Below are positions 292 through 56,893 of a stretch of 64,000 nt of DNA, piece after piece. The DNA comes from Candidatus Magasanikiibacteriota bacterium. GTDB lineage: Bacteria > Patescibacteriota > Patescibacteriia > Magasanikbacterales > UBA922. The notes beneath the pieces were generated by a model. It searched no databases, was not told the DNA's origin, and was given only the letters and a program-made list of their open reading frames with translations. The position numbers and the translations under genes were made by a program. The stretch spans positions 30,225 through 94,224 of the forward strand of contig JBAQFA010000022.1 in the NCBI GenBank assembly GCA_049287025.1, written 5' to 3'. Each line of letters opens with the position of its first letter. The first letter of the stretch is position 1.

Positions 292-454
292 GGCATTCGT
301 GCTCAAGCCGACAAAAAAGGCACATTCAACAACCTACAAGGAGAACAAGGGGGGCCGACACAACAAGGAGGCCCAAAAAAGATTATCATGTTTGGTAGTC
401 TTTTTTGTTTTTATATTCAATATTTTGCTTTACATCTGAGTTTGTGTTAAAATG

Positions 455-545
455 ATCTTTGTTAGGAGCGCTTCCGTTCAATACGGGGGCTGAGAAGTAT
501 CCTTATAACTTGATCTAGGTAATGCTAGCGCAAGGAAACAGAAAC
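455..545 (+). promoter_or_regulatory. TPP (THI-box) riboswitch
   Basis: ggagcgcttccgttcaatacgggggCTGAGAagtatccttataaCTTGATCTAGGTAATGCTAGCGCAAGGAA closely matches the conserved thiM-type aptamer (CUGAGA, ACCUGAUCUGGAUAAUGCCAGCGUAGGGAA); downstream alternative hairpins and T-run; upstream TTGCTT-17-TAAAAT promoter near 427-455. Confidence 0.8.
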
Positions 546-615
546 ACTAATTTTGTTCACTAATCTTCACTAATAGTGTTTGTTGTTTCCTTGTTAGGAA
601 ATTTTTTTGTTTTTA

Positions 616-1340: not shown

Positions 1341-2744
1341 ATGCTTAATATTTCATCTGTCGACTACTCAATAATCATAATCTATTTTATTTCCCTACTC
1401 GCTATTGGCTATTTTATCAAGCACAAATTTATTGAGACTTCTGATTATTTCTTGGCGGGCAGAAGGTTAACCTTACCAATTTTTGTGGCCACGCTTGTTA
1501 GCACTTGGTATGGTGGTACTATGGGAGTAGTGGAATTATCTTTCAATTATGGTTTGGTCAATTGGCTGACGCAGGGATTTTTTTGGTATTTGAGTTATTT
1601 ATTTTTTGCTTTTTTCTTGGCCAAAAAAGTCCGTCAATCAGAGCTTTTTACGGTACCTGATCAACTAGAAAAATTTTATGACAAACGGTCGCGTTTTTTG
1701 GGTGGAATTTTTAGTTTTCTCATGGTGACGCCAGCGCCTTATATTTTATCTTTGGGAATTATTTTTTCGTTATTTTTTGGTTGGCCAGTCTGGGCTGGAG
1801 CCTTGTTAAGTACTATTATTACGATTTTTTATACTTATCGTGGTGGTTTTCGAGCCGATGTCATTACTGATGTGATTCAATTTTTTCTAATGTTTATTGG
1901 TATTGGTTTGCTAGTTCCTTTTGCTGTAGCAAAATTTGGGGGCTTAAGTTTTTTACAAGCCAATTTACCAGCCACGCATTTTAGTTTAACCGGGGAGTGG
2001 ACCACACAAATGATTTTAGTTTGGGGATTTATTGCTTTTTGGACTTTGCTTGATCCGAGTTTTTATCAACGTTGTTATGCTACCAAAAATGATAAAATCC
2101 CTAAGAAGGGAATATTAATTTCAATTTTATTTTGGATGGTGTTTGATTTTTTTACGACCACGATTGGTATGTATGCTCGGGCAGCGATGCCAGACCTAGA
2201 TCCAGCCACAGCCTTACCCATGTTCGCGATCGCTGTTTTACCAAAAGTTTTTTTAGGATTATTTTTTACTGGTTTGATCGCTTCTATTTTATCTACCGTA
2301 GATTCTTTTACTATGCTTGGGGCGATGAATCTCTCTCATGATTTATACAAGAAAATTTTTAAGCCAGATCTTAGTGGAGAAAGAGAAATAAAATTAACTC
2401 GTTACGGCATAATTTTTACGGCTGGAATTTCTTTAATCATTGCTATTTTTGCTAGATCAATTATTGGTATCTGGTATACTATTGGAACAATTGGTATAAG
2501 TGCTATGTTAATTCCTCTATTGTTTGGTTTTTTTTACAAACGTAAACTCTGTGCCAGTGCTTCATTTTATTCTATGATTTTTGGGTCACTTACTGCCATC
2601 GGCTGGCTAATTTATGGCTATGCCAATATGGTTGATGGTTGGGCTAGTTATTTATGGGGTATAGAGCCGATGTATCCCGGACTTATCGTATCACTGGTCG
2701 TTTATATTGGAATAACAATATTTCAAAATAAAAAATCTCTATAA
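1341..2744 (+). CDS. sodium:solute symporter (SSS) family transporter
   Basis: about 13 TM segments, LAGRRL motif near N-terminus. Confidence 0.75.
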   Translation: MLNISSVDYSIIIIYFISLLAIGYFIKHKFIETSDYFLAGRRLTLPIFVATLVSTWYGGTMGVVELSFNYGLVNWLTQGFFWYLSYLFFAFFLAKKVRQSELFTVPDQLEKFYDKRSRFLGGIFSFLMVTPAPYILSLGIIFSLFFGWPVWAGALLSTIITIFYTYRGGFRADVITDVIQFFLMFIGIGLLVPFAVAKFGGLSFLQANLPATHFSLTGEWTTQMILVWGFIAFWTLLDPSFYQRCYATKNDKIPKKGILISILFWMVFDFFTTTIGMYARAAMPDLDPATALPMFAIAVLPKVFLGLFFTGLIASILSTVDSFTMLGAMNLSHDLYKKIFKPDLSGEREIKLTRYGIIFTAGISLIIAIFARSIIGIWYTIGTIGISAMLIPLLFGFFYKRKLCASASFYSMIFGSLTAIGWLIYGYANMVDGWASYLWGIEPMYPGLIVSLVVYIGITIFQNKKSL

Positions 2745-2752
2745 AAACGAAC

Positions 2753-2784
2753 GACCCCCGACATGCAACTTGCACGCGGGGGTC
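2753..2784 (-). terminator. GC-rich hairpin terminator of high-GC gene
   Basis: gacccccg...cgggggtc stem with inner tgcaa/ttgca stem; T-run follows on minus strand. Confidence 0.55.
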
Positions 2785-2808
2785 TGTTCTCTCGCCGGGG
2801 TGACGAGC

Positions 2809-3276
2809 TCAGCTGTAGAAGCCGAGCCTCTGCCACCAGTGGGGCGGGAAAACGACGTTCGGGTTGAACTTCTGGTCGGCATCGGTGGATGACACCTTTA
2901 CCGGCTTGATCTGGACGTCCCTGTTCACGAAGAACTGGAACGTCACGAGGTCACGACCGATGTAGGTGGAAACCACAGCTACCCCGTCCGATCCCGACTC
3001 TACGTAGCCGTAGTAGTCGAAGCCGGCACCAATCTTGGGGACTTCGAGGTAGAAGCCCACCAAGGTGGTGAAGGGTCGGCCGTCCTCGCTACGCAACACG
3101 ATGTTGCGCATGCCAGGCGTCTCCTGACCGCCGTAGCTGAACTCGACCAGGTGATGGCTCGACTCCGCGAACTGGTTGAAGAAGTTGAACTTCTTCATCA
3201 TTTCGCTGGCGAGGAACCAGCTGGTGGAGGCGAACAGGACGACCAGCAATGCAAGCAGAATCGTGAGCTTGTTCAA
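2809..3276 (-). CDS. hypothetical membrane-anchored protein, compositionally foreign (high G+C)
   Basis: TTG start at 3276 preceded by GGAGAG; N-terminal TM helix; track ORF to 3348 would overlap its own promoter. Confidence 0.45.
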   Translation of the reverse strand: MNKLTILLALLVVLFASTSWFLASEMMKKFNFFNQFAESSHHLVEFSYGGQETPGMRNIVLRSEDGRPFTTLVGFYLEVPKIGAGFDYYGYVESGSDGVAVVSTYIGRDLVTFQFFVNRDVQIKPVKVSSTDADQKFNPNVVFPPHWWQRLGFYS

Positions 3277-3319
3277 TTGTCTCTCCAGATTTGGGTTGTT
3301 CTCAACTTCCGAACGATTC

Positions 3320-3348
3320 AATATAACATAAAAACAGACCTTTGTCAA
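3320..3348 (-). promoter_or_regulatory. sigma70-like promoter TTGACA-17-TATATT (minus strand)
   Basis: tgtcaa 3343-3348 and aatata 3320-3325 on plus strand. Confidence 0.5.
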
Positions 3349-3384
3349 GGTCTATTTAGTATAATTTAGCTAGATTTAGGCTTT

Positions 3385-4176
3385 TTATTTATTTTTAGTA
3401 AATACGACAGAATTTATAACTTTTTCTATATCTTTTATAGTAATTTCTGGGTATTTAAAATAAAAACTTAATGTTTTGAATTCATCACTATAGTCTTCAG
3501 GTAGTTTTAAAATGGCAATTATTCCATCTTTTTCATTCGCATAAAAATTAATTGCATAAAACACATAGGCTTCAAGATTATCTTCTCTAATTATAGTTTT
3601 TAAATAATTTTTATCATTAGTTATTGAAGAAGTGTTAAATTCATAATTATTTGTATGCCAATAATCTTTACCTGCAGTAAAATCTTTAGAAACACCACCA
3701 GCAAATTCATACCCATGATTAGATAAGTCAAGTACACGCCAACTATATTGCGAACCACTATCTAAACTATAATACTCTGGAGCTAATTTCGGTGATTGAT
3801 AATTATAATCCGTACTACTCACTGCTCCCAAAGGTATGGGAAAATTAAAAGAAATATTTACATCTTTACTTTCAAATTTTTTCCAAACAAATTTGTTAAT
3901 TTTTGGAATATAAACATCTACATTTTCTGATATTCTAGCATTGTTATAAACAAATTCTTCATTATTTTTAGGATAAATATAACATCCATTACCACAACTA
4001 ATTAATTCTTCTGGTGTGGTTAATATTTTACCTTCAACAGTGTTCAATTGAATTTTTTTAATTTCTTCTTTTTTTACTATTTCAACATTTTTGTTTACTA
4101 TTTCAACATTTTTGTTTTTTGTGGCACAGCCTGTAGTAAAAATAATAATAATTAGAACTAATAAAATTTTATACAT
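3385..4176 (-). CDS. lipoprotein, hypothetical
   Basis: lipobox FTTGC after signal peptide; internal 21-bp tandem duplication near 4075-4120. Confidence 0.5.
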   Translation of the reverse strand: MYKILLVLIIIIFTTGCATKNKNVEIVNKNVEIVKKEEIKKIQLNTVEGKILTTPEELISCGNGCYIYPKNNEEFVYNNARISENVDVYIPKINKFVWKKFESKDVNISFNFPIPLGAVSSTDYNYQSPKLAPEYYSLDSGSQYSWRVLDLSNHGYEFAGGVSKDFTAGKDYWHTNNYEFNTSSITNDKNYLKTIIREDNLEAYVFYAINFYANEKDGIIAILKLPEDYSDEFKTLSFYFKYPEITIKDIEKVINSVVFTKNK

Positions 4177-4180
4177 AAGT

Positions 4181-4441
4181 TTATTTATTTTTTAACCACC
4201 ATTTTTTAAAAAAGGGAATTGATAAAGTAGAAATAACAAAAGCAAGAGAGGGGACAACCGCATTTTTAAATGGTTCTGATAAATTGGCAAAATAAAAAAA
4301 TATAGTGATTACCAAATAAGTAGAAACCAGAATAATGAATCGGCGTGCCCAGCTCGTTTCCCAGGCTTTGTCTTTCTCTACCCGTTCATTACGTTCTTTT
4401 ATTTCATTTATTTGTTGTTGAAGTTCTTCATTTGTGGGCAT
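4181..4441 (-). CDS. small membrane protein
   Basis: ORF, one or two TM helices. Confidence 0.35.
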   Translation of the reverse strand: MPTNEELQQQINEIKERNERVEKDKAWETSWARRFIILVSTYLVITIFFYFANLSEPFKNAVVPSLAFVISTLSIPFFKKWWLKNK

Positions 4442-4451
4442 AAAATTTTAA

Positions 4452-4766
4452 TTATTTTTTAAAATATTTTTCTTTTATTAGCCAGATCAATCCCATAAGA
4501 CAAAAAAATAAAGCAAGAACGAGTGAATAGAGTGAATGGCCAACACCACATTTGATATCATCTGGGTTTAACCAGCAATCAATTGGACCGGCTAAAAATT
4601 TTGTATACAAACTCAAAATGATAGCGACTGCAATTAAATACAGACCTTTATGGTACCAGGCCTTACCTCTGGCTATTTTTTCTAGCGGTAAGTAGACTCC
4701 TAGGAAAATCATGCTGAGAGCTAGAGTAAAAAATAGTACTTGTATGATTGGTGATGTATTCATCAT
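4452..4766 (-). CDS. small membrane protein
   Basis: ORF, three TM helices; overlaps next gene by ATGA. Confidence 0.4.
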   Translation of the reverse strand: MMNTSPIIQVLFFTLALSMIFLGVYLPLEKIARGKAWYHKGLYLIAVAIILSLYTKFLAGPIDCWLNPDDIKCGVGHSLYSLVLALFFCLMGLIWLIKEKYFKK

Positions 4767-5386
4767 AATAAATTGTTAAGAGTAGAATATCCTAAATATA
4801 TGGCAAAGGCAATTAAAATACAACCGGCAATAAAAGAAATTATTTTCATTACTTTTTCATTGACAAATCTCTTGCCCATATGTGCTAAAAAAGAAATGAC
4901 AAATCCCCAAATTATTGCGCCCAAGATTACAAAGCCTAAATTTATCAAAAAATTAAGGTTATGTGTATTGTAGTTTGGGTTGGAAGCAAAGATGCTATAA
5001 AAACCTAGCCACGCAATGGGAGCTAAGGGGTTTGTGATGTTGATTAAAAATCCAGCCCAGAAAGTATCACCAAAAGTTTTTTTAATTTTTTTATCTAAAA
5101 TATTTTTTCCAAAAGCGTTTTTGATATCACCAATACCAAAGTAAATTAATAGTAGCACGCCAAAAGTTCCTAAGACCAGGGAAAAAGTTTGACTTTGGAA
5201 AAAAGAAGTAAAAGCAAAAAAGATTAAGATCAAATAAATGGCGTCGATCAAAACTGCACCCATGTTGGTTATAAACGCTGACCAAAATCCATGTTCTAGT
5301 CCGCGTCGAATAGTTAAAATAGTCACTGGACCAATAGCGGCTACAAAACTAATACCAAGGATAATGAATTTTAGAAAGTCGGGCAT
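4763..5386 (-). CDS. LysE/RhtB family translocator
   Basis: about 200 aa, 6 TM, N-terminal GPV..RGL motif. Confidence 0.5.
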   Translation of the reverse strand: MPDFLKFIILGISFVAAIGPVTILTIRRGLEHGFWSAFITNMGAVLIDAIYLILIFFAFTSFFQSQTFSLVLGTFGVLLLIYFGIGDIKNAFGKNILDKKIKKTFGDTFWAGFLINITNPLAPIAWLGFYSIFASNPNYNTHNLNFLINLGFVILGAIIWGFVISFLAHMGKRFVNEKVMKIISFIAGCILIAFAIYLGYSTLNNLL

Positions 5387-5390
5387 AAAA

Positions 5391-5939
5391 TTAAATCATT
5401 TTTAAAAAATTTCTAAAAATTTGTTTTCCATTTTCACCAGAGACTTCAGGATGGAATTGTAAGCCATATTTATTGCCAAATTTCATGGCTTCATTTTCAC
5501 AAGAAATAGATTTGGCCAATAACATAATATCAACCGGCAAAGAGACAAATTCAGAGTGTTCTTTTTTAAATAAAGTATTTTTATCTACGCCTTCAAATAG
5601 GGGATCATATTGAATAATTTCAATTGGTTCATCTTTACTAATCAATTCACCATGGCCAATTTGTCCGCCATACAAAAGACCTAATATCTGATGACCGAGA
5701 CAGATTCCTAAAACTGGAATATTAATATTTTTTATAAATTCAAATGGCTGAATAAATTTTTTATAATCAATTTGTGAAAGTTTGGTTGGTCCACCAGTAA
5801 TAATAATGCCAGAGTAAACGTTAAAATCATGATTTGTGATTTAATCAATGTTTACAACTATATTTTTATAACCAAAATCATTAAAAGTATTTTGAATATT
5901 TTTTAAAAACATGGTGCCACAATTAATAATACAGATCAT
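5391..5939 (-). pseudogene. class I glutamine amidotransferase (GuaA-N-like) interrupted by in-frame TAA
   Basis: GICLGHQ Cys and FHPEVS His motifs; ATG 5939, in-frame TAA at 5841-5843 (codon 33), frame continues ITNHDFNVYSGIIITGGP. Confidence 0.5.
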
Positions 5940-5952
5940 AATTTATTTTAAC

Positions 5953-6267
5953 TTACTTTTTTATAATTTTAATTCCTCTTAATCCTAAAATCAATAAAAC
6001 CAAAATAATTATTTTTAAAATATAGTGGCCATGTAAATCTAAAAAATTTTTTGTAAATGGAGTAACGTTGCCAACTAATAGATGTATAATAATAGAGATT
6101 GGTAGAGTAAGAAAAAGCCAATTGATTTTTGGTATGTCAAGTTTGATTTTTTTAAAGAGTTTGGTTAATAGGGGAGAAAGTAACCAAATTCCAAGAAAAG
6201 AAACAACAAAATCAAAAATTGCATAGCCACCCAATCTAAATTGACGTAGAAATTCAATAATAGACAT
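5953..6267 (-). CDS. small membrane protein
   Basis: ORF with 3 TM. Confidence 0.4.
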   Translation of the reverse strand: MSIIEFLRQFRLGGYAIFDFVVSFLGIWLLSPLLTKLFKKIKLDIPKINWLFLTLPISIIIHLLVGNVTPFTKNFLDLHGHYILKIIILVLLILGLRGIKIIKK

Positions 6268-6270
6268 AAA

Positions 6271-6882
6271 TTATTTATTAAATTTATTCCACTTTTCAAT
6301 CAAAGCTAAAATATCTTTTTCAAATTCTAGCATTAGTTTTTGATTGTTTTCCGCGGTTTTCCAGTTTGATCTTTCTTCAGCTCCGAGTAATCTGCCAAAA
6401 ATATCTCTAAAAAATCTTGGATAACCCAGGTCAGTATTTACTAACCATTTTTGATTTTTATTTTCCAAGAAAAGATATTTTTGTTTTTGAACAAATTCCT
6501 TTTTCATTTCTTCTAGATTAGAAATTTTATGCAAGGTTTTTTCATCTGGTATTATTTGTTCAGTATTAAAATTAAAAGGTAAGAAATGGGTGTGAGCATG
6601 AAAAACAGTTTGACCAGTAACACCGTGTTCAAATATTCCTACTTCACCATAGTATGTTTTTATAAACAATTTAACTTTTTCGTATAGTTCTATATATTTT
6701 CCAAAAGCGTCTTCTGACAAACTACCCATGGTAGAGACATGAGCTTTGGGAATAATAAGAATATGTCCTTCGGTGAGTGGGTGAACATCACAAACAATCC
6801 AAAATAAATTATCAGTATAGAGTGGATGTTTTAGTCCGATTTCACCAGGGCAGTGAGCGCAGTTGTTATCTTGATTATTCAT
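6271..6882 (-). CDS. HIT family hydrolase-like protein
   Basis: HAHTHFL histidine triad motif, CAHCPGE N-terminal. Confidence 0.55.
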   Translation of the reverse strand: MNNQDNNCAHCPGEIGLKHPLYTDNLFWIVCDVHPLTEGHILIIPKAHVSTMGSLSEDAFGKYIELYEKVKLFIKTYYGEVGIFEHGVTGQTVFHAHTHFLPFNFNTEQIIPDEKTLHKISNLEEMKKEFVQKQKYLFLENKNQKWLVNTDLGYPRFFRDIFGRLLGAEERSNWKTAENNQKLMLEFEKDILALIEKWNKFNK

Positions 6883-6925
6883 AAAATTACAACACTATTG
6901 TATCATCTTTTATTAAATAAAAAAA

Positions 6926-6950
6926 CTCCCCAGGGTTGGTGGGGAGTTCT
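6926..6950. terminator. bidirectional intrinsic terminator aaaaaactccccagggttggtggggagtt
   Basis: A-run, GC stem, T-run. Confidence 0.6.
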
Positions 6951-7019
6951 GTGTTTGAATTATTTTTTTATACCTATTATTCCACTAATGTAAATTTCAA
7001 TTTTTATATGTATTAAATA

Positions 7020-7517
7020 TTATTTATTGCACGCCTCATAAAAAAGTATAGCAGATTTTACTCGTAGGTATTCAATACAAGATGCCATCACTGGTTGAGC
7101 TTGTTCTGAAAATAATTTATCATCACAACCTTTATTTCTAGGTGATTTTCTACAATTTAAGATTTTTTCCGCTATATTATTGTTGTAAAATGAGTAACAG
7201 CCAAGTGCAATTTTATCTACCTGTTTTCCAATATCTAAATTTTTAGTAACACAGTCTTGATAATTTTTGTCAGATTGAAGTAATTTTATAGCTTTTAAGC
7301 TTATGGCATATTCTTCTTTTGTGAAAGTGTGAGACTGTGTACTATCGTTTTTATTATCAGTAGATTCAATATCATTGTTTGTTTGAACTGGTGGCTGAGT
7401 AATAGTTTTGGATTGTTCTGGATTAGCGGAATCATCATTTATTAGAGTGTCTTGTCCGGTAGTGGCACAGCCAGTTAAGAGGAGTGCAAAAGATAATGCA
7501 AAAATGATTTTTTTCAT
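7020..7517 (-). CDS. lipoprotein, hypothetical
   Basis: LLTGCATT lipobox. Confidence 0.5.
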   Translation of the reverse strand: MKKIIFALSFALLLTGCATTGQDTLINDDSANPEQSKTITQPPVQTNNDIESTDNKNDSTQSHTFTKEEYAISLKAIKLLQSDKNYQDCVTKNLDIGKQVDKIALGCYSFYNNNIAEKILNCRKSPRNKGCDDKLFSEQAQPVMASCIEYLRVKSAILFYEACNK

Positions 7518-7605
7518 AATAGTATGAAATGATTAATTAGTTAATAAAATTTGTATAATTTAAGCAAGATTGTTATATATGATGATTATATCACTTTTTT
7601 CCATA

Positions 7606-7633
7606 TAAAAAAACTCCCCAGGGTGGGGAAGTT
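7606..7633. terminator. intrinsic terminator aaaaaactccccagggtggggaagttt
   Basis: same family as 6926. Confidence 0.55.
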
Positions 7634-7643
7634 TAATTGTATT

Positions 7644-8690
7644 TTATGATTGATCACGTTGAATTCCACTAGGGGTTGCTTGAATTTTACCAAATCCTAG
7701 GGCTGACCCGTTTGTTTCTAAGTAGAAGTTCATTTTGTAAGTTTGTCCATCGTTTGAGACATAGGTATAGTTTGATTGTGGTGATAGTGGGTCAGATGGA
7801 ACTGGGTTCATAAATTGGTAAGGCTTTTCACATCCGGCTGGTTCAAAACCATTTTCTCCTAAACATGTGTAGTTTTTTGAACCTAGAATAATGGCTGAGT
7901 TTGCTAGAGGATATTTGTGGTTGTTTTGATAATATAGTTCTAAAGATGTTTGAATTCGTCTCATTTCGCTTATTCTTTGTTCATCTCTTTTTTTTGCTTC
8001 TAATTCTAATGTAACCTCATCTGGTAGAGCGGGGACATTAGTAATTAATGTTTTTAGTTCTTTGTTTAAAGCACACTCAGCTTTAGTTTTTACTACCATA
8101 GCATAACCAGCGTAAGAAACGTCTTGGAGAATGTCAATATTAGTTTTTTCCCAATTTTGAATAGTTGGATTCCACAAATACATTTTTTCAAATTCACAGT
8201 TACCTATAGTAAGCCCGCCTTGAGAAAATTGTGGCACTATAGAAATAAAGTTCCAGCCAGCATGTAGTTTTACTGGTCTGGTAAAGGCATCTTTACTAAC
8301 TTCTAGAGTAAATTTCGCTGGCTGTTTAAAATAAATCCACATGGGGGATAATTGTAAATAATCGCGATTCTGTGCCATTATTTGGTAATCAGCATCTTTG
8401 TATCCACCAGAAGTAGTGATATATCGACCAACAGATGGGGCATAGACATAGAAAGGTGTTAAGATGTTTGATAAATCATTATTTTCATACAAATCCATAC
8501 CAGAAAAACCACCTTCTGGTAATAAATTCCAGCCTTTAGCTATTTCAATTTCTATCAACCAATGGTCAGCGTTTCTTGGGCTAGTCTTATCAGGAATGCT
8601 AGTTAATTTGGAACTAGTCATAGCTTGAGCTATTAGAGCCGAGCCAAAAATGATGGTTAGAATGATTGTGAAGAAAAAATATTTTTTCAT
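7644..8690 (-). CDS. secreted protein with C-terminal pilin-like domain
   Basis: Sec signal peptide; LELYYQNNHKYP resembles pseudopilin globular-domain motif. Confidence 0.45.
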   Translation of the reverse strand: MKKYFFFTIILTIIFGSALIAQAMTSSKLTSIPDKTSPRNADHWLIEIEIAKGWNLLPEGGFSGMDLYENNDLSNILTPFYVYAPSVGRYITTSGGYKDADYQIMAQNRDYLQLSPMWIYFKQPAKFTLEVSKDAFTRPVKLHAGWNFISIVPQFSQGGLTIGNCEFEKMYLWNPTIQNWEKTNIDILQDVSYAGYAMVVKTKAECALNKELKTLITNVPALPDEVTLELEAKKRDEQRISEMRRIQTSLELYYQNNHKYPLANSAIILGSKNYTCLGENGFEPAGCEKPYQFMNPVPSDPLSPQSNYTYVSNDGQTYKMNFYLETNGSALGFGKIQATPSGIQRDQS

Positions 8691-8706
8691 ATTATATAAA
8701 TTTTAT

Positions 8707-8931
8707 TTAATCTTTTGGTAGAGCCGGTGGCGGTGGTATAACATTATCAGAATCAGAATTTTTAGTTTCAGTATTGTTTGTTTTTATAACAGCGTTATTT
8801 ACAGTTTCTTCATCACTTGGTAGAGCTGGTGGTTGTGGTGCCACCTCGTCATTTTTTTGTGATTTATTATAAGTAGTAGCACAGCCACTCATTATTAGTA
8901 TCAAAACTAATAATAACATTGTTTTTTTCAT
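8707..8931 (-). CDS. small lipoprotein
   Basis: MSGCATT lipobox; leader 8932-8960 duplicated at 7518-7550. Confidence 0.45.
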   Translation of the reverse strand: MKKTMLLLVLILIMSGCATTYNKSQKNDEVAPQPPALPSDEETVNNAVIKTNNTETKNSDSDNVIPPPPALPKD

Positions 8932-9049
8932 ATAGTATGAAATGATTAATTAGTGAATAGACTTTAGCATAATTAAGCTAAAATGTCAATATAAAATGGC
9001 TTGGTTATTATAGCATAATTTTTTGTATAAAAATACTTCAAAAATATAT

Positions 9050-9079
9050 TTGACTAAGTATATAAAATTTGGTTAAATA
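9050..9079 (+). promoter_or_regulatory. sigma70-like promoter TTGACT-17-TTAAAT
   Basis: immediately upstream of high-GC ORF, SD ctgagg. Confidence 0.4.
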
Positions 9080-9102
9080 TTTTTGGTAACCAACTGAGGC
9101 TG

Positions 9103-9300
9103 ATGATGTGTCTCTTTAGCGAGCTGTCCGAGGGATCGCACTTCCATCGGAAGGACGACCATGTGATCTACAAGAGGATGCGGCTGGCCTGGTATGTGTT
9201 TTGGCTCGGAATCTGCCGAGCCAACGCCGTCCGACTCGAGGATGGCAGTGGCCCGAAGTACTGTCGGGTCGCGGACAATACGGAGGTCGTCTGGGTCTAG
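9103..9300 (+). CDS. hypothetical 65-aa protein, compositionally foreign (high G+C)
   Basis: highest GC3 of the overlapping frames; promoter and SD; GC hairpin 9313-9340 after stop. Confidence 0.35.
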   Translation: MMCLFSELSEGSHFHRKDDHVIYKRMRLAWYVFWLGICRANAVRLEDGSGPKYCRVADNTEVVWV

Positions 9301-9413
9301 CCAACCCACCCCCCCCTGTGATATCGTGTTGCAGGGGGCAACCGAGATTGGGAGGATTTTTATAAACACCCACCATGACTTGCTTTGATTCTGTTTTATA
9401 AAACCGAGTTAGA

Positions 9414-9500
9414 GTAAGGAGACGGTGGGTGTTTTGTTTTATAAAAAAACTCCATAGGGTGGTGTTTAGGGTTCCAGAAAAAAAAGAAAATCAATAATAA
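9414..9500. repeat. direct repeat copy 1 (about 85 bp) flanking high-GC cassette
   Basis: about 90% identical to 9991-10082; contains terminator-like core aaaaaactccatagggtggtg. Confidence 0.7.
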
Positions 9501-9593
9501 AATTACTTGACAAATTTTGTGATATGTTATAGCATAAGACGCTGTATCAGTGGGCCTTTAGTGTCACTTGGACAATAAACGGAGGTGAGGACC

Positions 9594-9899
9594 ATGATCG
9601 TCTTTGGCTGGCTGAAGAAACTTCGGGAACGGAAGGTGCGACGCCTAGAGCAGCAGGAGGCTGCGAGGGCGAAGATGCGGCAGGCGATTGTCGCCTTCAA
9701 CGAGGAGGACTCTGTTGATCCGGTGGCTCGGATCAACAAGGTGGTGCCCATCCTGCAGGCCTACACCACCCTAGCCGACGCTTTCGACCCCGGGTGGCGA
9801 CAGTGGGGGAAGTGCGACCTCACGACTATTCCGGAACTCCACGAGTTCCGAGGCTACATCGGGGTCGTTTTCGCCGACTGTGAGAGCCTGTTCGACTGA
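9594..9899 (+). CDS. hypothetical 101-aa protein, compositionally foreign (high G+C)
   Basis: GGAGGTGAGG SD 9581-9590; TTGACA 9506-9511 promoter; high G+C. Confidence 0.4.
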   Translation: MIVFGWLKKLRERKVRRLEQQEAARAKMRQAIVAFNEEDSVDPVARINKVVPILQAYTTLADAFDPGWRQWGKCDLTTIPELHEFRGYIGVVFADCESLFD

Positions 9900-9990
9900 C
9901 CACAGTTCGTTGGCTTGTAGAGAGGGGGCAAGTCAACGGTACAACAACAACCATTCCACCCCTCGTTAATATTTCAGAATTGGAATAATA

Positions 9991-10082
9991 GCGAAGGAGA
10001 AGAGGAATGGTTTTTGTTTTATAAAAAAACTACATAGGGTGGTGCTTAGGGTTCCAGCAGAAAAAGAAAATCAATAATAAAA
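9991..10082. repeat. direct repeat copy 2
   Basis: see 9414-9500. Confidence 0.7.
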
Positions 10083-10106
10083 CCGACTATTGAGTCGGTT
10101 TTATTT
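10082..10106 (-). terminator. hairpin terminator aaaaccgactattgagtcggtttt
   Basis: 8-bp stem, T-rich on minus; near-identical copy at 10816. Confidence 0.55.
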
Positions 10107-10130
10107 GTCTTTTAATATGTTGTGGGGTTA

Positions 10131-10763
10131 TTAATAAAGAAACACACTTACTAATCCAACTAAAATAATAATAATGCCTAATATTTTTCTAACAACATCC
10201 TCATGCTTTTGATAAAATGATATAGCCCATTTTTGTGAAAACAATTTTGCCCACACGGATCCCATAAGAAAATAAATTGCGGGCAGTATTATGAAAGAAA
10301 TAAATAATACCCACCATGGGAATTCAACTTTTCTTATAGCAAAGAATACGCTCATAAAAAATACAGCATATTTTGGATTAAACAACCCAGTTAAAAAACC
10401 CATTCTTATGGCCTCAGTTTTAGTAAGTTCTTTTATGTGTTCTTTTTCTCCTTCTATTTTTTTTGTCATTATCTCTCTGGAGAGAATTGTTCTCATGCCT
10501 ACGCCAGTGAGATAAATTACACTCAAAATTTGAATTGTTTCAAAAGAAAAATCCCAAACTTTGGAGATGAGAGAAAAAGCGACAATTGACCAAATGATAT
10601 GTATTATGGTGGCCATAGCATTACCCATGGCTGTTTGGATGCCGGTTTTACGTGAGTAAATTAAAGAATTTCTAACAATGACAAAAATTGATGGTTCAAT
10701 TTTGAACCACTCCAAAACACCCAAGGCGCCAAACATTATGATTGATAGTATATTGTCTGCCAT
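10131..10763 (-). CDS. LysE/RhtB family translocator
   Basis: 6 TM, about 210 aa. Confidence 0.5.
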   Translation of the reverse strand: MADNILSIIMFGALGVLEWFKIEPSIFVIVRNSLIYSRKTGIQTAMGNAMATIIHIIWSIVAFSLISKVWDFSFETIQILSVIYLTGVGMRTILSREIMTKKIEGEKEHIKELTKTEAIRMGFLTGLFNPKYAVFFMSVFFAIRKVEFPWWVLFISFIILPAIYFLMGSVWAKLFSQKWAISFYQKHEDVVRKILGIIIILVGLVSVFLY

Positions 10764-10815
10764 ATCATTACATGATATTAAAATTTTTAAAAATAGTCAA
10801 ATAAAATTTTAGTAA

Positions 10816-10841
10816 AACCGACTGGTGGGTCGGTTTTATTT
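10816..10841 (-). terminator. hairpin terminator aaaaccgactggtgggtcggtttt
   Basis: repeat of 10082 hairpin. Confidence 0.55.
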
Positions 10842-10896
10842 GTCTATACTAGTGTTTAAAATCTCCTCCGGGGTTATGGGGTATTATTATTTGAAT

Positions 10897-11496
10897 TTAT
10901 ATAATTTTTATATACTCAGCAAACCTTTTGCCGTAATCGGATATGAAAATTATAGGGTTAAGATTTTCATCTTGAGCACCATTCATCATAAAATCTCCTC
11001 TTCTAGTTTCCAGAAAACCTAATGATATTAGTTTGTTAACGCCACCATAAATTAGGTATATATCATTTCCGCCTAATGACCTTATTGGTACAGGGTCTTG
11101 ATTGCTAAAAAGAGAAGCTAGTAAAATGCACTCGAATTCAGATAAATCATCTAATATTTTTAAGAAAGTTTTGCGTTCATCGATATCATTTATAATAGGT
11201 GTGTTCAATGTTTTTATAAAAAAATTTTTTAATAATCGTTTTTTTTCTTCCCTTGTCTCTATCTCAACTCGGTTTAGTATGTCTTCAATTAAATTGGTTA
11301 GGTCTTCCTTGTTGTGTTTAGACAAAGCAGACTCATTAATTGGATTTTGTTCCAATTCCTGTTTGACTTGTTCTAAAAATTTTTCTAATCTTTCAAATCT
11401 TTTTTCTTGTTTGTTTCCAAAATATAAAGTTGCAAGTGATCCACCTATATATGGGACAGCATTCAATCCCGCTTCAATTATGGTGTCTCGTTTCAT
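10897..11496 (-). CDS. hypothetical protein, co-oriented 26 bp downstream of clpB
   Basis: ORF; no recognised motif. Confidence 0.45.
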   Translation of the reverse strand: MKRDTIIEAGLNAVPYIGGSLATLYFGNKQEKRFERLEKFLEQVKQELEQNPINESALSKHNKEDLTNLIEDILNRVEIETREEKKRLLKNFFIKTLNTPIINDIDERKTFLKILDDLSEFECILLASLFSNQDPVPIRSLGGNDIYLIYGGVNKLISLGFLETRRGDFMMNGAQDENLNPIIFISDYGKRFAEYIKII

Positions 11497-11522
11497 ATTT
11501 ATAATATTAAAATAGTATTTTA

Positions 11523-15458: not shown

Positions 15459-16214
15459 ATGTTAAGTAAAAAAATAATCCAACACATCAACAAACTCGGT
15501 CAGAAAAAAGTTCGTCATGAAGAACATGAATTTATTATTGAAGGTATAAAGGGTATAAGTGAAGCTTTGGAATCTGACGCTAATATTCTTTTGTTGGTAG
15601 TAGAAGGTAATCGGCGCGATGAAAATGAATTTGTTGAATTAATTAAATTAGCAGAAAGACAACAAGTTTCAATAGAATTTTGTGGACGCAAAGAAGTGGA
15701 TGATATAAAAACGACTGATACTTTTCCTGGAGTTTTGGCAATTGTGGAGCAATCTGAGGTTGAGTTGAATGATTTAACAGGTAATATAATTTGCCTTGAT
15801 GGTGTCAAAGACCCGGGTAATCTTGGGACAATTATTCGTACCGCTGATTGGTTTGGTATAAAAAATATAATACTCGCCGAAGATTGTGTCGATCCATACA
15901 ATCCAAAAGTTGTACGCAGTACCATGGGTTCAATTTTTCGAGTAAATATTTTTGAGAGTGAGGGGATAGTGAGAGATTTGAGTTATTTACAAGAAGACGG
16001 ATATAAATTGAATGGTTTGGTGATGAACGGTGTTAATTTGGATAAACTTAAACCTGGGAATAAAGAAATTTATGTTTTAGGCAGTGAATCCCATGGTATC
16101 AGACCAGAGGTTGAAAAAATATTAGATAAAAAGTATACTATTTCTGGTTCTGGCTCGGCTGAATCTTTGAATGTTGCTGTCGCTTGTGGAATTTTATTGT
16201 CTCGTATATCCTGA
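15459..16214 (+). CDS. SpoU/TrmH family RNA 2'-O-methyltransferase
   Basis: C-terminal SPOUT motifs (LGSESHG, NVAVA). Confidence 0.7.
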   Translation: MLSKKIIQHINKLGQKKVRHEEHEFIIEGIKGISEALESDANILLLVVEGNRRDENEFVELIKLAERQQVSIEFCGRKEVDDIKTTDTFPGVLAIVEQSEVELNDLTGNIICLDGVKDPGNLGTIIRTADWFGIKNIILAEDCVDPYNPKVVRSTMGSIFRVNIFESEGIVRDLSYLQEDGYKLNGLVMNGVNLDKLKPGNKEIYVLGSESHGIRPEVEKILDKKYTISGSGSAESLNVAVACGILLSRIS

Positions 16215-56680: not shown

Positions 56681-56893
56681 TTAGCCTGGGACGACAGAGA
56701 AGACCAACGTGTTGTCAGGGAAGTAAACCCTCTTCTGTCGAATTCCCTCGTCCAACATCACGGTGGCGATGGCGTTGTACTGATAGTGTTCATTGACAAC
56801 CACTAACAGTACTTTGGTGTAGAGCGTTCCCTCTGGGAGTTTCCCCAGACGAAACTTGCCGTTGACCGACAACTGACCAAAAGTCATATTCAT
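56681..56893 (-). CDS. hypothetical 70-aa protein, compositionally foreign (high G+C)
   Basis: high-G+C ORF; promoter TTGACA-16-TAGAAT; palindrome ccatccagtgggatgg after stop. Confidence 0.4.
   Translation of the reverse strand: MNMTFGQLSVNGKFRLGKLPEGTLYTKVLLVVVNEHYQYNAIATVMLDEGIRQKRVYFPDNTLVFSVVPG

Follow-up and report, generated by a model that had tools for sequence, protein, structure and literature searches.

A G+C-rich single-gene cassette for a predicted surface protein in a Candidatus Magasanikiibacteriota genome

As described in PMC3594210, phage morons are independent transcription units that are spread by horizontal transfer. Here we describe a one-gene cassette that resembles such units in layout, at positions 2745–3357 (minus strand) of a 64,000-nucleotide (nt) stretch of DNA, hereafter the window, from a Candidatus Magasanikiibacteriota bacterium (assembly GCA_049287025.1, contig JBAQFA010000022.1, positions 30,225–94,224 of the forward strand). 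A deviating base composition is associated with morons, mobile DNA is usually A+T-richer than its host, and G+C-rich islands in A+T-rich genomes are a classic signal of non-coding RNA (ncRNA). Moreover, atypical G+C content is routinely taken as a clock of recent horizontal transfer, and an earlier note on this DNA, made from the letters alone, had read the cassette in that way, as a recent acquisition possibly from a high-G+C donor. That reading fails for this cassette, the G+C content of which at third codon positions (GC3) has been near 0.8 at one chromosomal site through near-saturating divergence, with a GC3 near 0.26 in its hosts. We give an even chance to the reading that it is a resident, insulated cassette, mobile in the long run, for a fast-evolving surface protein, and that its composition and folding potential are maintained traits.

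Anatomy and age of the cassette

The cassette stands out sharply from its surroundings. In 300-nt steps, the G+C content across 2701–3300 is 0.53–0.59, compared with 0.22–0.37 in the flanks and 33.7% over the whole window, which bears out the island that the earlier note had placed at 2745–3350. The rise spans approximately 2745–3313, and the cassette boundaries are exactly those of one transcription unit. In minus-strand order, the unit opens with the hairpin AAAUAGACCUUGACAAAGGUCUGUUU and a T-run (3332–3357; 11 pairs, flagged as terminator-like), which folds at −13.6 kcal/mol (z −5.05) and is read as a predicted terminator or insulator against transcription from upstream. The −35 hexamer sits in the loop and 3′ arm of this hairpin. 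It belongs to a predicted sigma-70-type promoter at 3320–3348, exactly where the note had put it: TTGACA at 3348–3343, a 17-nt spacer and a TG-extended −10 element, TATATT, at 3325–3320. This promoter matches 11 of 12 consensus positions, the joint best score within the first 11 kb of the window; the other site with that score is the promoter of island 1 (see below). Judging from the position of the −10 element, transcription would start near 3313, giving a 5′ untranslated region (UTR) of about 37 nt (3277–3313) with a Shine-Dalgarno sequence, GGAGAG, at 3286–3281, followed by ACAA and a TTG start codon at 3276–3274. The sequence and the alignment of homologs agree with the note on this start, and the TTG at 3276 is favoured over the upstream TTGs at 3348 and 3321, as many homologs start within a few alignment residues of it. 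The predicted pairing probability is 0.42–0.52 in the 5′ UTR and 0.72 in the coding body, so that the initiation region is only modestly less paired, which is uninformative.

The coding region (2809–3276, minus strand) ends at a TGA stop at 2811–2809 and encodes 155 amino acids (aa) plus the stop codon, rather than the 156 aa first counted; GC3, homologs, substitution rates and an AlphaFold2 model all bear on it. Its G+C contents at the three codon positions are 0.51/0.37/0.85, a clear codon periodicity. By comparison, GC3 is 0.12–0.30 in seven neighbouring genes and averages approximately 0.26 (maximum 0.33) over the 58 native open reading frames (ORFs) of the window that reach 100 aa. The 3′ UTR (2743–2807) contains a small hairpin at 2807–2791, a main hairpin at 2789–2749 and a U-run at 2747–2743. 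The strong GC hairpin that had been noticed at 2753–2784 is the core of the main stem, which is longer than was noted and, together with UUUUU, folds at −37.8 kcal/mol over 81 nt (z −5.35), as a putative intrinsic terminator. The U-run abuts and overlaps the stop codon (2742–2744) of the convergent gene for an SSS symporter.

Relatives were recovered by scanning species-representative genomes with the SSS protein; their loci carry numbers prefixed with L. The metagenome-assembled genome (MAG) UBA11710 (L012; SSS 93% identical) contains a cassette ortholog at exactly the same site. In L014, L015 and L016 (SSS 71–73% identical), the SSS gene is followed by A+T-rich DNA or other genes, and in L014 the ClpB region comes almost immediately. 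Because these three loci lack the G+C-rich gene and the hairpin after SSS, the module must have been inserted. The coding regions of the two orthologs are 69% identical in DNA and 62% in protein. Nei–Gojobori estimates for this pair gave a synonymous divergence (dS) of 1.16 and a non-synonymous divergence (dN) of 0.27 for the cassette gene (dN/dS 0.23), compared with 0.93 and 0.04 for SSS (0.04), 0.63 and 0.14 for the thiamin pyrophosphokinase gene TPK (0.22) and 0.53 and 0.04 for an 86-aa neighbour (0.08). The cassette protein is therefore under purifying selection and yet is evolving far faster (5–10-fold) than most of its neighbours. Since the ortholog occupies the same site and the synonymous sites are near saturation, the insertion predates the split from UBA11710. 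Hence, of the earlier proposal of a recently acquired cassette, the self-contained, inserted module stands and its recency does not; likewise, the comparison of relatives that the note had called for gives presence at the site in UBA11710 and absence after SSS in L014–L016.

The ends of the cassette have changed less than its body. An 85-nt promoter block comprising the hairpin, the −35 and −10 elements and the first half of the UTR is identical at 82 of 85 positions in UBA11710, whereas neighbouring genes differ at 38–53% of synonymous sites. The upstream hairpin has a UBA11710 counterpart of −16.3 kcal/mol (z −5.55), and the UBA11710 terminator keeps its stem despite several base differences (−32.9 kcal/mol, z −4.67), with a conserved SSS end. 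A second, independent syntenic clade (L020, L023 and L029) shows the same pattern of persistence: the flanking proteins are 92–98% identical and the family gene 57–79%, with dS of about 1.2, dN/dS of 0.11–0.34 and GC3 of 0.74–0.76. Elsewhere, the neighbours of family genes vary by genome, with members found after genes for PNPase, RecR, a HAD hydrolase or SSS. L021, L022 and L026 share about 70% DNA identity over the coding region and a homologous terminator, with no detectable homology in kilobases of flanking sequence, which indicates that the module changes genomic context as a unit. Most members inspected are monocistronic and have a TTGACA-type −35 and an extended −10 element upstream; the −35 lies within a hairpin with a T-run in this genome, UBA11710, L021, L038 and L007 (the last three by eye).

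G+C content and folding excess across the family

High G+C content is a property of the family rather than of this copy. At 15 of the 16 loci with usable flanking ORFs, the GC3 of the family gene exceeds that of the flanks (mean excess +0.27; Wilcoxon p = 6e-5). In seven A+T-rich hosts (flank GC3 0.24–0.33), namely this window, L012, L020, L021, L023, L026 and L029, the copy has a GC3 of 0.71–0.85; in the latter six the flanks are 33–37% G+C and the gene is at 0.71–0.78 (0.78 in UBA11710). Homologs in A+T-rich relatives, which the earlier note had named as evidence against its own reading, therefore exist, though the gene is G+C-rich there as well. In the most G+C-rich hosts sampled, the flanks have a GC3 of 0.54–0.56 and the family gene 0.84–0.89, the highest host (0.56) carrying a gene at 0.89. 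No 'home' genome that matches the GC3 of its G+C-rich copy was found among the 16 loci. In a rough neighbour-joining tree, G+C-rich and A+T-rich versions of the gene are interspersed.

Retention of G+C was also assessed at strictly synonymous third positions of the two orthologs, where we counted 54 shared G/C, 9 G–C interchanges, 22 strong/weak differences and 3 shared A/T. A two-state model was fitted to the synonymous sites of the flanking genes, from which the turnover was taken. Starting from a GC3 of 1.0, it predicts approximately 0.76 at present and about 32 strong/weak differences in 89 sites; the observed values are 0.88 and 0.79, with 22 of 89. This result is suggestive of G+C retention but not decisive.

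The coding sequence also folds in excess of its composition. The 468-nt coding region has a predicted energy of −201.3 kcal/mol, compared with −164.1 ± 5.7 kcal/mol in dinucleotide shuffles (z −6.54), and the UBA11710 ortholog gives z −6.59. Synonymous codons were also permuted in twelve family members such that protein, codon usage and GC3 were preserved; z averaged −3.5 (range −1.2 to −7.2), and the value of −7.2 belongs to the A+T-rich copy of L025. By contrast, 44 control coding segments, drawn from native genes of the window and from genes of 41–58% G+C in G+C-richer Patescibacteria, gave −0.5 ± 1.2 (family versus controls, Mann–Whitney p = 5e-6).

The predicted protein, its genomic setting and sister islets

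The family to which the product belongs is restricted to Patescibacteria, as judged from sequence searches. A word-index search of 5.8 billion proteins gave 13 homologs; when 1.84 billion representatives were searched with a profile, 186 clusters were retrieved, almost all of them about 150–165 aa long or fragments. Because the profile-search library carries no names, ten of the 186 clusters were looked up for named members; these, and all 13 word-index matches, belong to Patescibacteria or Magasanikbacteria. The actinobacterial matches that the note had proposed to look for did not turn up, and no homolog from another high-G+C lineage was found in either search, leaving its suggested donor without a candidate. 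Scans of the product and 14 family members against Pfam, NCBIfam, PHROG and PADLOC gave nothing above noise, and a family-profile search of PDB sequences gave chance matches alone (E > 0.1).

The product is predicted to consist of an N-terminal transmembrane helix and an extracytoplasmic beta-sandwich. Its 19-residue Kyte–Doolittle maximum, 2.36, falls at residues 4–22, with Lys3 ahead of the segment, the pattern expected of a membrane-anchored or secreted protein (about 20 hydrophobic N-terminal residues after a positive charge). An AlphaFold2 model built from 14 sequences (predicted local distance difference test (pLDDT) score, 90.8) places a helix at residues 3–40, followed by a sandwich of 7–8 strands; both lines of evidence support the N-terminal transmembrane helix of the earlier note, as a prediction. 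Three motifs are conserved in the family alignment: FLASEMxKKFGF, directly behind the hydrophobic segment; GFDYYG; and, at the very C terminus, YPPHWWQRLGFY[SGA], which in the beta-sandwich of this protein reads YPPHWWQRLGFYS. The 3′ end of the coding region was considered as a DNA-level recombination site and rejected, as synonymous sites vary across the family and the motif is kept at the protein level. A type IV pilin was likewise rejected: the N terminus, MNKLTILLALLVV..., is without a G/(F,M)xxxE prepilin motif, and the conserved glutamate, E25, comes only after the hydrophobic segment. Among PDB structures, the best fold matches were carbohydrate-binding modules (CBMs) of Ruminococcus flavefaciens (5aos and 5fu2), PirA (7fcn) and Ptr ToxA (1zld), all weak and typical of a generic beta-sandwich (E 5e-3 to 2e-2, template-modelling (TM) score 0.33–0.52, identity 11–16%). 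In a fold search of viral models, no match was better than E 3e-3, with TM scores of about 0.2–0.35. Patescibacteria are attributed an episymbiotic lifestyle. Given that lifestyle, the architecture and the fast evolution of the protein, the most plausible role would be that of a surface-displayed protein of the binding or adhesion type.

The cassette lies between ordinary chromosomal genes. The flanking genes are those named in the earlier note: the SSS symporter gene at 1341–2744 (Pfam SSF, 3e-33) and, at 3385–4176, a 263-aa gene with a lipoprotein-like N terminus. The wider surroundings include genes for TPK, SSS, LysE, HIT, ClpB, FtsQ, MreB, SerRS and ATP synthase. The thiamin pyrophosphokinase gene (576–1247) is immediately preceded by a thiamin pyrophosphate (TPP) riboswitch (454–553, plus strand; Rfam RF00059, 67.8 bits), the only Rfam match in the vicinity at both gathering and E-value thresholds. 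The first 13.3 kb of the window, the cassette included, are 100% identical to contig JBAQOB010000143.1, from a Candidatus Magasanikiibacteriota MAG. That contig, of 18,825 bp, would end at about 15710 of the window, which runs unbroken through an ORF at 15459–16214; the window thus appears to derive from a longer assembly of the same genome, one protein of which is recorded on two contigs, the longer measuring 112,778 bp. An assembly artefact, a concern raised in the note, can be rejected, as the module is identical on that contig and orthologous in UBA11710. The interval from SSS to ClpB (2745–11500) is hypervariable; its length is about 8.8 kb in this genome, about 3.9 kb (of different content) in L015 and about 150 nt in L014. 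The gene beside the cassette also differs, being a 150-aa membrane protein gene in UBA11710 in place of the 263-aa lipoprotein gene. A terminator-like element, AAAAAAACTCCCCAGGGTGGGGAGTTT, recurs after native genes at 6922–6950, 7611–7634, 9439–9463 and 10019–10043. No paralog of the cassette family was found within the window. A search for direct repeats flanking the cassette, which is island 2 of the window, found just weak matches of 13–17 nt, unlike at islands 1 and 3b.

These and other small G+C-rich islets were noted alongside the cassette. Island 1 (14–410) comprises a TTGACA-17-TATACT promoter (14–42), GGAGG, a 73-aa ORF (70–291; GC3 0.69) and a hairpin with T-run (374–407); the whole unit folds with z −5.1, and a search of 5.8 billion proteins gave no homolog of the ORF. 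The site of the island is empty in UBA11710, and an imperfect direct repeat of about 30 nt of target sequence (GATGTTAATTGTTGATAAGTTTTGT...) brackets the insertion. In the region of 9040–10082, island 3a has a 65-aa ORF (9103–9300) and island 3b a promoter (9507–9535) and a 101-aa ORF (9594–9899), with GC3 of 0.78–0.80 and full-unit z of −5.6 to −6.8. Island 3b is bracketed by a 71-nt direct repeat (9432–9502 and 10012–10082; 94% identical) that contains degenerate copies of AAAAAAACTCCCCAGGGTGGGGAGTTT; its product has one other homolog, at 72% identity, with no donor identifiable. A further small G+C-rich ORF at 56681–56893 (minus strand; 70 aa, GC3 0.67) has a TTGAC-type promoter about 58 nt upstream, no Pfam match and a folding z of −3.2 against dinucleotide shuffles. 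In L013, a more distant relative, a different single-gene cassette of about 50% G+C (5382–6107) occupies the slot after SSS; it consists of a promoter, an ORF of 118 aa and a terminator, and lies between copies of a 61-nt direct repeat, a duplication of the 3′ end of SSS. Two more islets with TTGAC-type promoters and no Pfam family are located in L012 (52–756, minus strand; 234 aa, GC3 0.72, z −5.6) and L015 (8770–9354, plus strand; 194 aa, GC3 0.66–0.67). We searched the literature for G+C-rich islands in Patescibacteria and found nothing relevant.

It is conceivable, though we hold it to be rather improbable, that island 2 and these islets together form a class of single-gene cassettes in Patescibacteria, mobile and transcriptionally insulated, that has yet to be described. 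Such cassettes would insert into intergenic DNA, duplicating 30–70 nt of the target, by means of a recombination system acting in trans, and would functionally require both their G+C-richness and their extreme self-complementarity. If this were true, the requirement, which might for instance be for a single-stranded DNA or RNA intermediate that is folded, or for a transcript that withstands nucleases and lives long, would explain the resistance of the islets to amelioration. The filled and empty sites and the long flanking repeats of the sister islets also provide a handle on gene gain in reduced genomes.

Competing explanations and known systems

In the reading that we favour, that of a resident cassette with maintained composition, the unit would run from an upstream hairpin or terminator laid over the −35 element, through an extended −10 promoter, a Shine-Dalgarno sequence and a TTG start, to a 155-aa protein and an intrinsic terminator, with promoter and terminator activities that are predicted from sequence. 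The N-terminal hydrophobic helix would insert the product in the membrane, most likely with the N terminus inside, and a beta-sandwich of about 115 residues with its aromatic C-terminal motif would be displayed outside the cell. Insertion of the cassette downstream of SSS would have taken place in an ancestor shared by this genome and UBA11710, with inheritance in place thereafter, and the G+C-richness and self-complementarity seen across the family would be actively maintained. The most probable cause would be that the transcript itself is under selection, perhaps to be compact and long-lived as an mRNA.

Several observations weigh against this reading. High G+C content is not obligatory in the family, because L027, L030, L031, L024, L025 and L001, likewise A+T-rich hosts (flank GC3 0.24–0.33), carry copies with host-like GC3 (0.20–0.46). 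The amelioration argument draws on a simple model and about 90 synonymous sites, and would not hold had the allele been re-imported in each lineage; polarised counts of strong-to-weak and weak-to-strong changes in the second clade, for which the outgroup is saturated, are too few and noisy to decide. As for folding, only 35 of 170 predicted pairs are common to the orthologs of this genome and UBA11710, the structure of this cassette fits the UBA11710 sequence no better than randomly mutated copies (z −0.84), and the structure conservation index (SCI), about 0.5 within clades, drops to 0.01 for the family as a whole. Because specific pairs are not conserved, any selection would have to act on generic foldedness, which would be unusual. 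Moreover, excess folding is seen on the antisense strand too (z −4.8, compared with −6.0 for the sense strand), so that the cause may lie at the DNA level. A specific conserved RNA structure was accordingly rejected as the reason for the high G+C content; the trait that would be maintained is generic self-complementarity, at the RNA or DNA level. Finally, the weak, generic fold matches (best E 5e-3) leave the functional guess soft.

Three alternatives would make the cassette a foreign or non-coding element. Recent acquisition from an actinobacterium or another high-G+C donor, with amelioration still to come, would account for the extreme contrast in GC3 (0.85 against approximately 0.26), for codons that read like those of a genome of about 60–65% G+C and for the empty site in more distant relatives. 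However, orthologs at the same site in two genomes with a flank dS of 0.5–0.9, the confinement of named homologs to Patescibacteria with no actinobacterial match, and the G+C-richness of the gene in many A+T-rich genomes leave this origin a very slight probability. We regard a phage moron or prophage remnant as scarcely more probable, and still very unlikely: the cassette fits the description of an independent transcription unit spread horizontally (PMC3594210), and its composition deviates from that of its flanks, but it has no PHROG match, no relatives of the family were found among the 2.9 million viral contigs of IMG/VR, the viral fold search gave no convincing match and the neighbours are housekeeping or transport genes. 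A structured, G+C-rich ncRNA with a chance ORF would fit the very strong folding. This is the hardest of the three to credit, given the codon periodicity (0.51/0.37/0.85), an ORF kept across 186 clusters with dN/dS well below 1, a confident AlphaFold2 model, and the lack of an Rfam match or conserved RNA structure; the cassette may have a dual coding and RNA role.

The other two alternatives concern what keeps the gene G+C-rich. In one, the locus would be a recombination hot spot at which divergent alleles from an unsampled G+C-rich pool, in other Patescibacteria or their mobile elements, recurrently replace the resident copy by homologous recombination through the promoter block and the terminator and SSS end; both the high G+C and the large protein divergence would then persist with no selection acting on composition. 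The abrupt shifts in identity between the orthologs (96% in the promoter block, about 69% in the coding body, and about 94% in the last 50 nt of the coding region and the SSS end) speak for such exchange, as do a cassette dS (1.16) somewhat above that of the flanks, the mobility of the cassette over evolutionary time, the hypervariability of the interval from SSS to ClpB, and the presence or absence of sister cassettes with flanking repeats. On the other hand, no source was found: none of the 16 hosts reaches the GC3 of its G+C-rich copy, and the viral contigs contain no relative. Differences of the G-to-C type per G/C site are alike in the cassette (9 of 63) and the flank (11 of 72), as expected for equal age. 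Replacement alone also leaves the folding excess unexplained, which is strong even in the A+T-rich copy of L025. We therefore consider recurrent replacement unlikely, but it is the strongest of the rivals. A neutral local bias, in which GC-biased gene conversion in an often recombining segment, hairpin-templated (quasi-palindrome) mutation or both raise G+C content and self-complementarity to no advantage of the cell, would agree with a folding excess that is nearly symmetric between strands and not tied to conserved pairs, and with the excess folding of some other G+C-rich islets, coding or not. It does not readily explain boundaries that match one transcription unit exactly or purifying selection on the protein (dN/dS 0.11–0.34) and, to our knowledge, a GC3 rise of 0.3–0.6 far exceeds what is attributed to biased conversion in bacteria. 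We consider this bias distinctly improbable.

The GC3 and the folding excess, at 5–7 standard deviations beyond expectation from protein sequence, codon usage and composition, point to selection or a biased mechanism that acts on the nucleic acid of a coding gene. If confirmed, the cassette would be a concrete, testable case of composition held against mutational bias. The family is, in addition, an abundant-looking group of fast-evolving, predicted surface proteins specific to Patescibacteria, organisms about whose surface biology and attachment to hosts little is known.

Compared with described systems, the cassette is most readily set beside morons, with which it shares a single gene with its own sequence-level promoter and terminator, a position between two unrelated genes and an atypical composition. 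Unlike a moron, which by definition lies in a phage genome, it is located outside any phage or prophage, and it has kept its one chromosomal site, by stable inheritance, through a species-level split, with a composition that is constant in the family and no identifiable donor. Like genomic islets, it has atypical G+C content, lies at the 3′ ends of convergent genes, varies in presence among relatives and belongs to a narrow family. However, acquired genes are expected to drift towards the host composition, whereas the GC3 of the cassette is 0.78–0.85 after near-saturating synonymous divergence, as is likewise seen in the second clade, and the G+C-rich copies of the family exceed every sampled host in GC3. 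Integron cassettes are similarly small, single-ORF mobile units that gather in a variable region, and islands 3a and 3b are separated by a repeated 71-nt element; integron cassettes are, however, usually promoterless, and this one has its own promoter. No attC-like site was recognised, although no dedicated attC model was run, and the 3′ element is a plain hairpin and U-run; the annotated contig genes and ten additional mid-size ORFs were examined, and no integrase or recombinase was found. Structured-RNA islands share the sharp G+C contrast and the very strong folding z, but the cassette is protein-coding and is without conserved secondary structure or an Rfam family. At the protein level, the predicted domain resembles beta-sandwich binding modules (CBMs, PirA and ToxA) in size and in its 7–8 strands. 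It differs from them in having no sequence relation to solved structures, and its N-terminal transmembrane helix and C-terminal YPPHWWQRLGFYS motif are specific to the cassette family.

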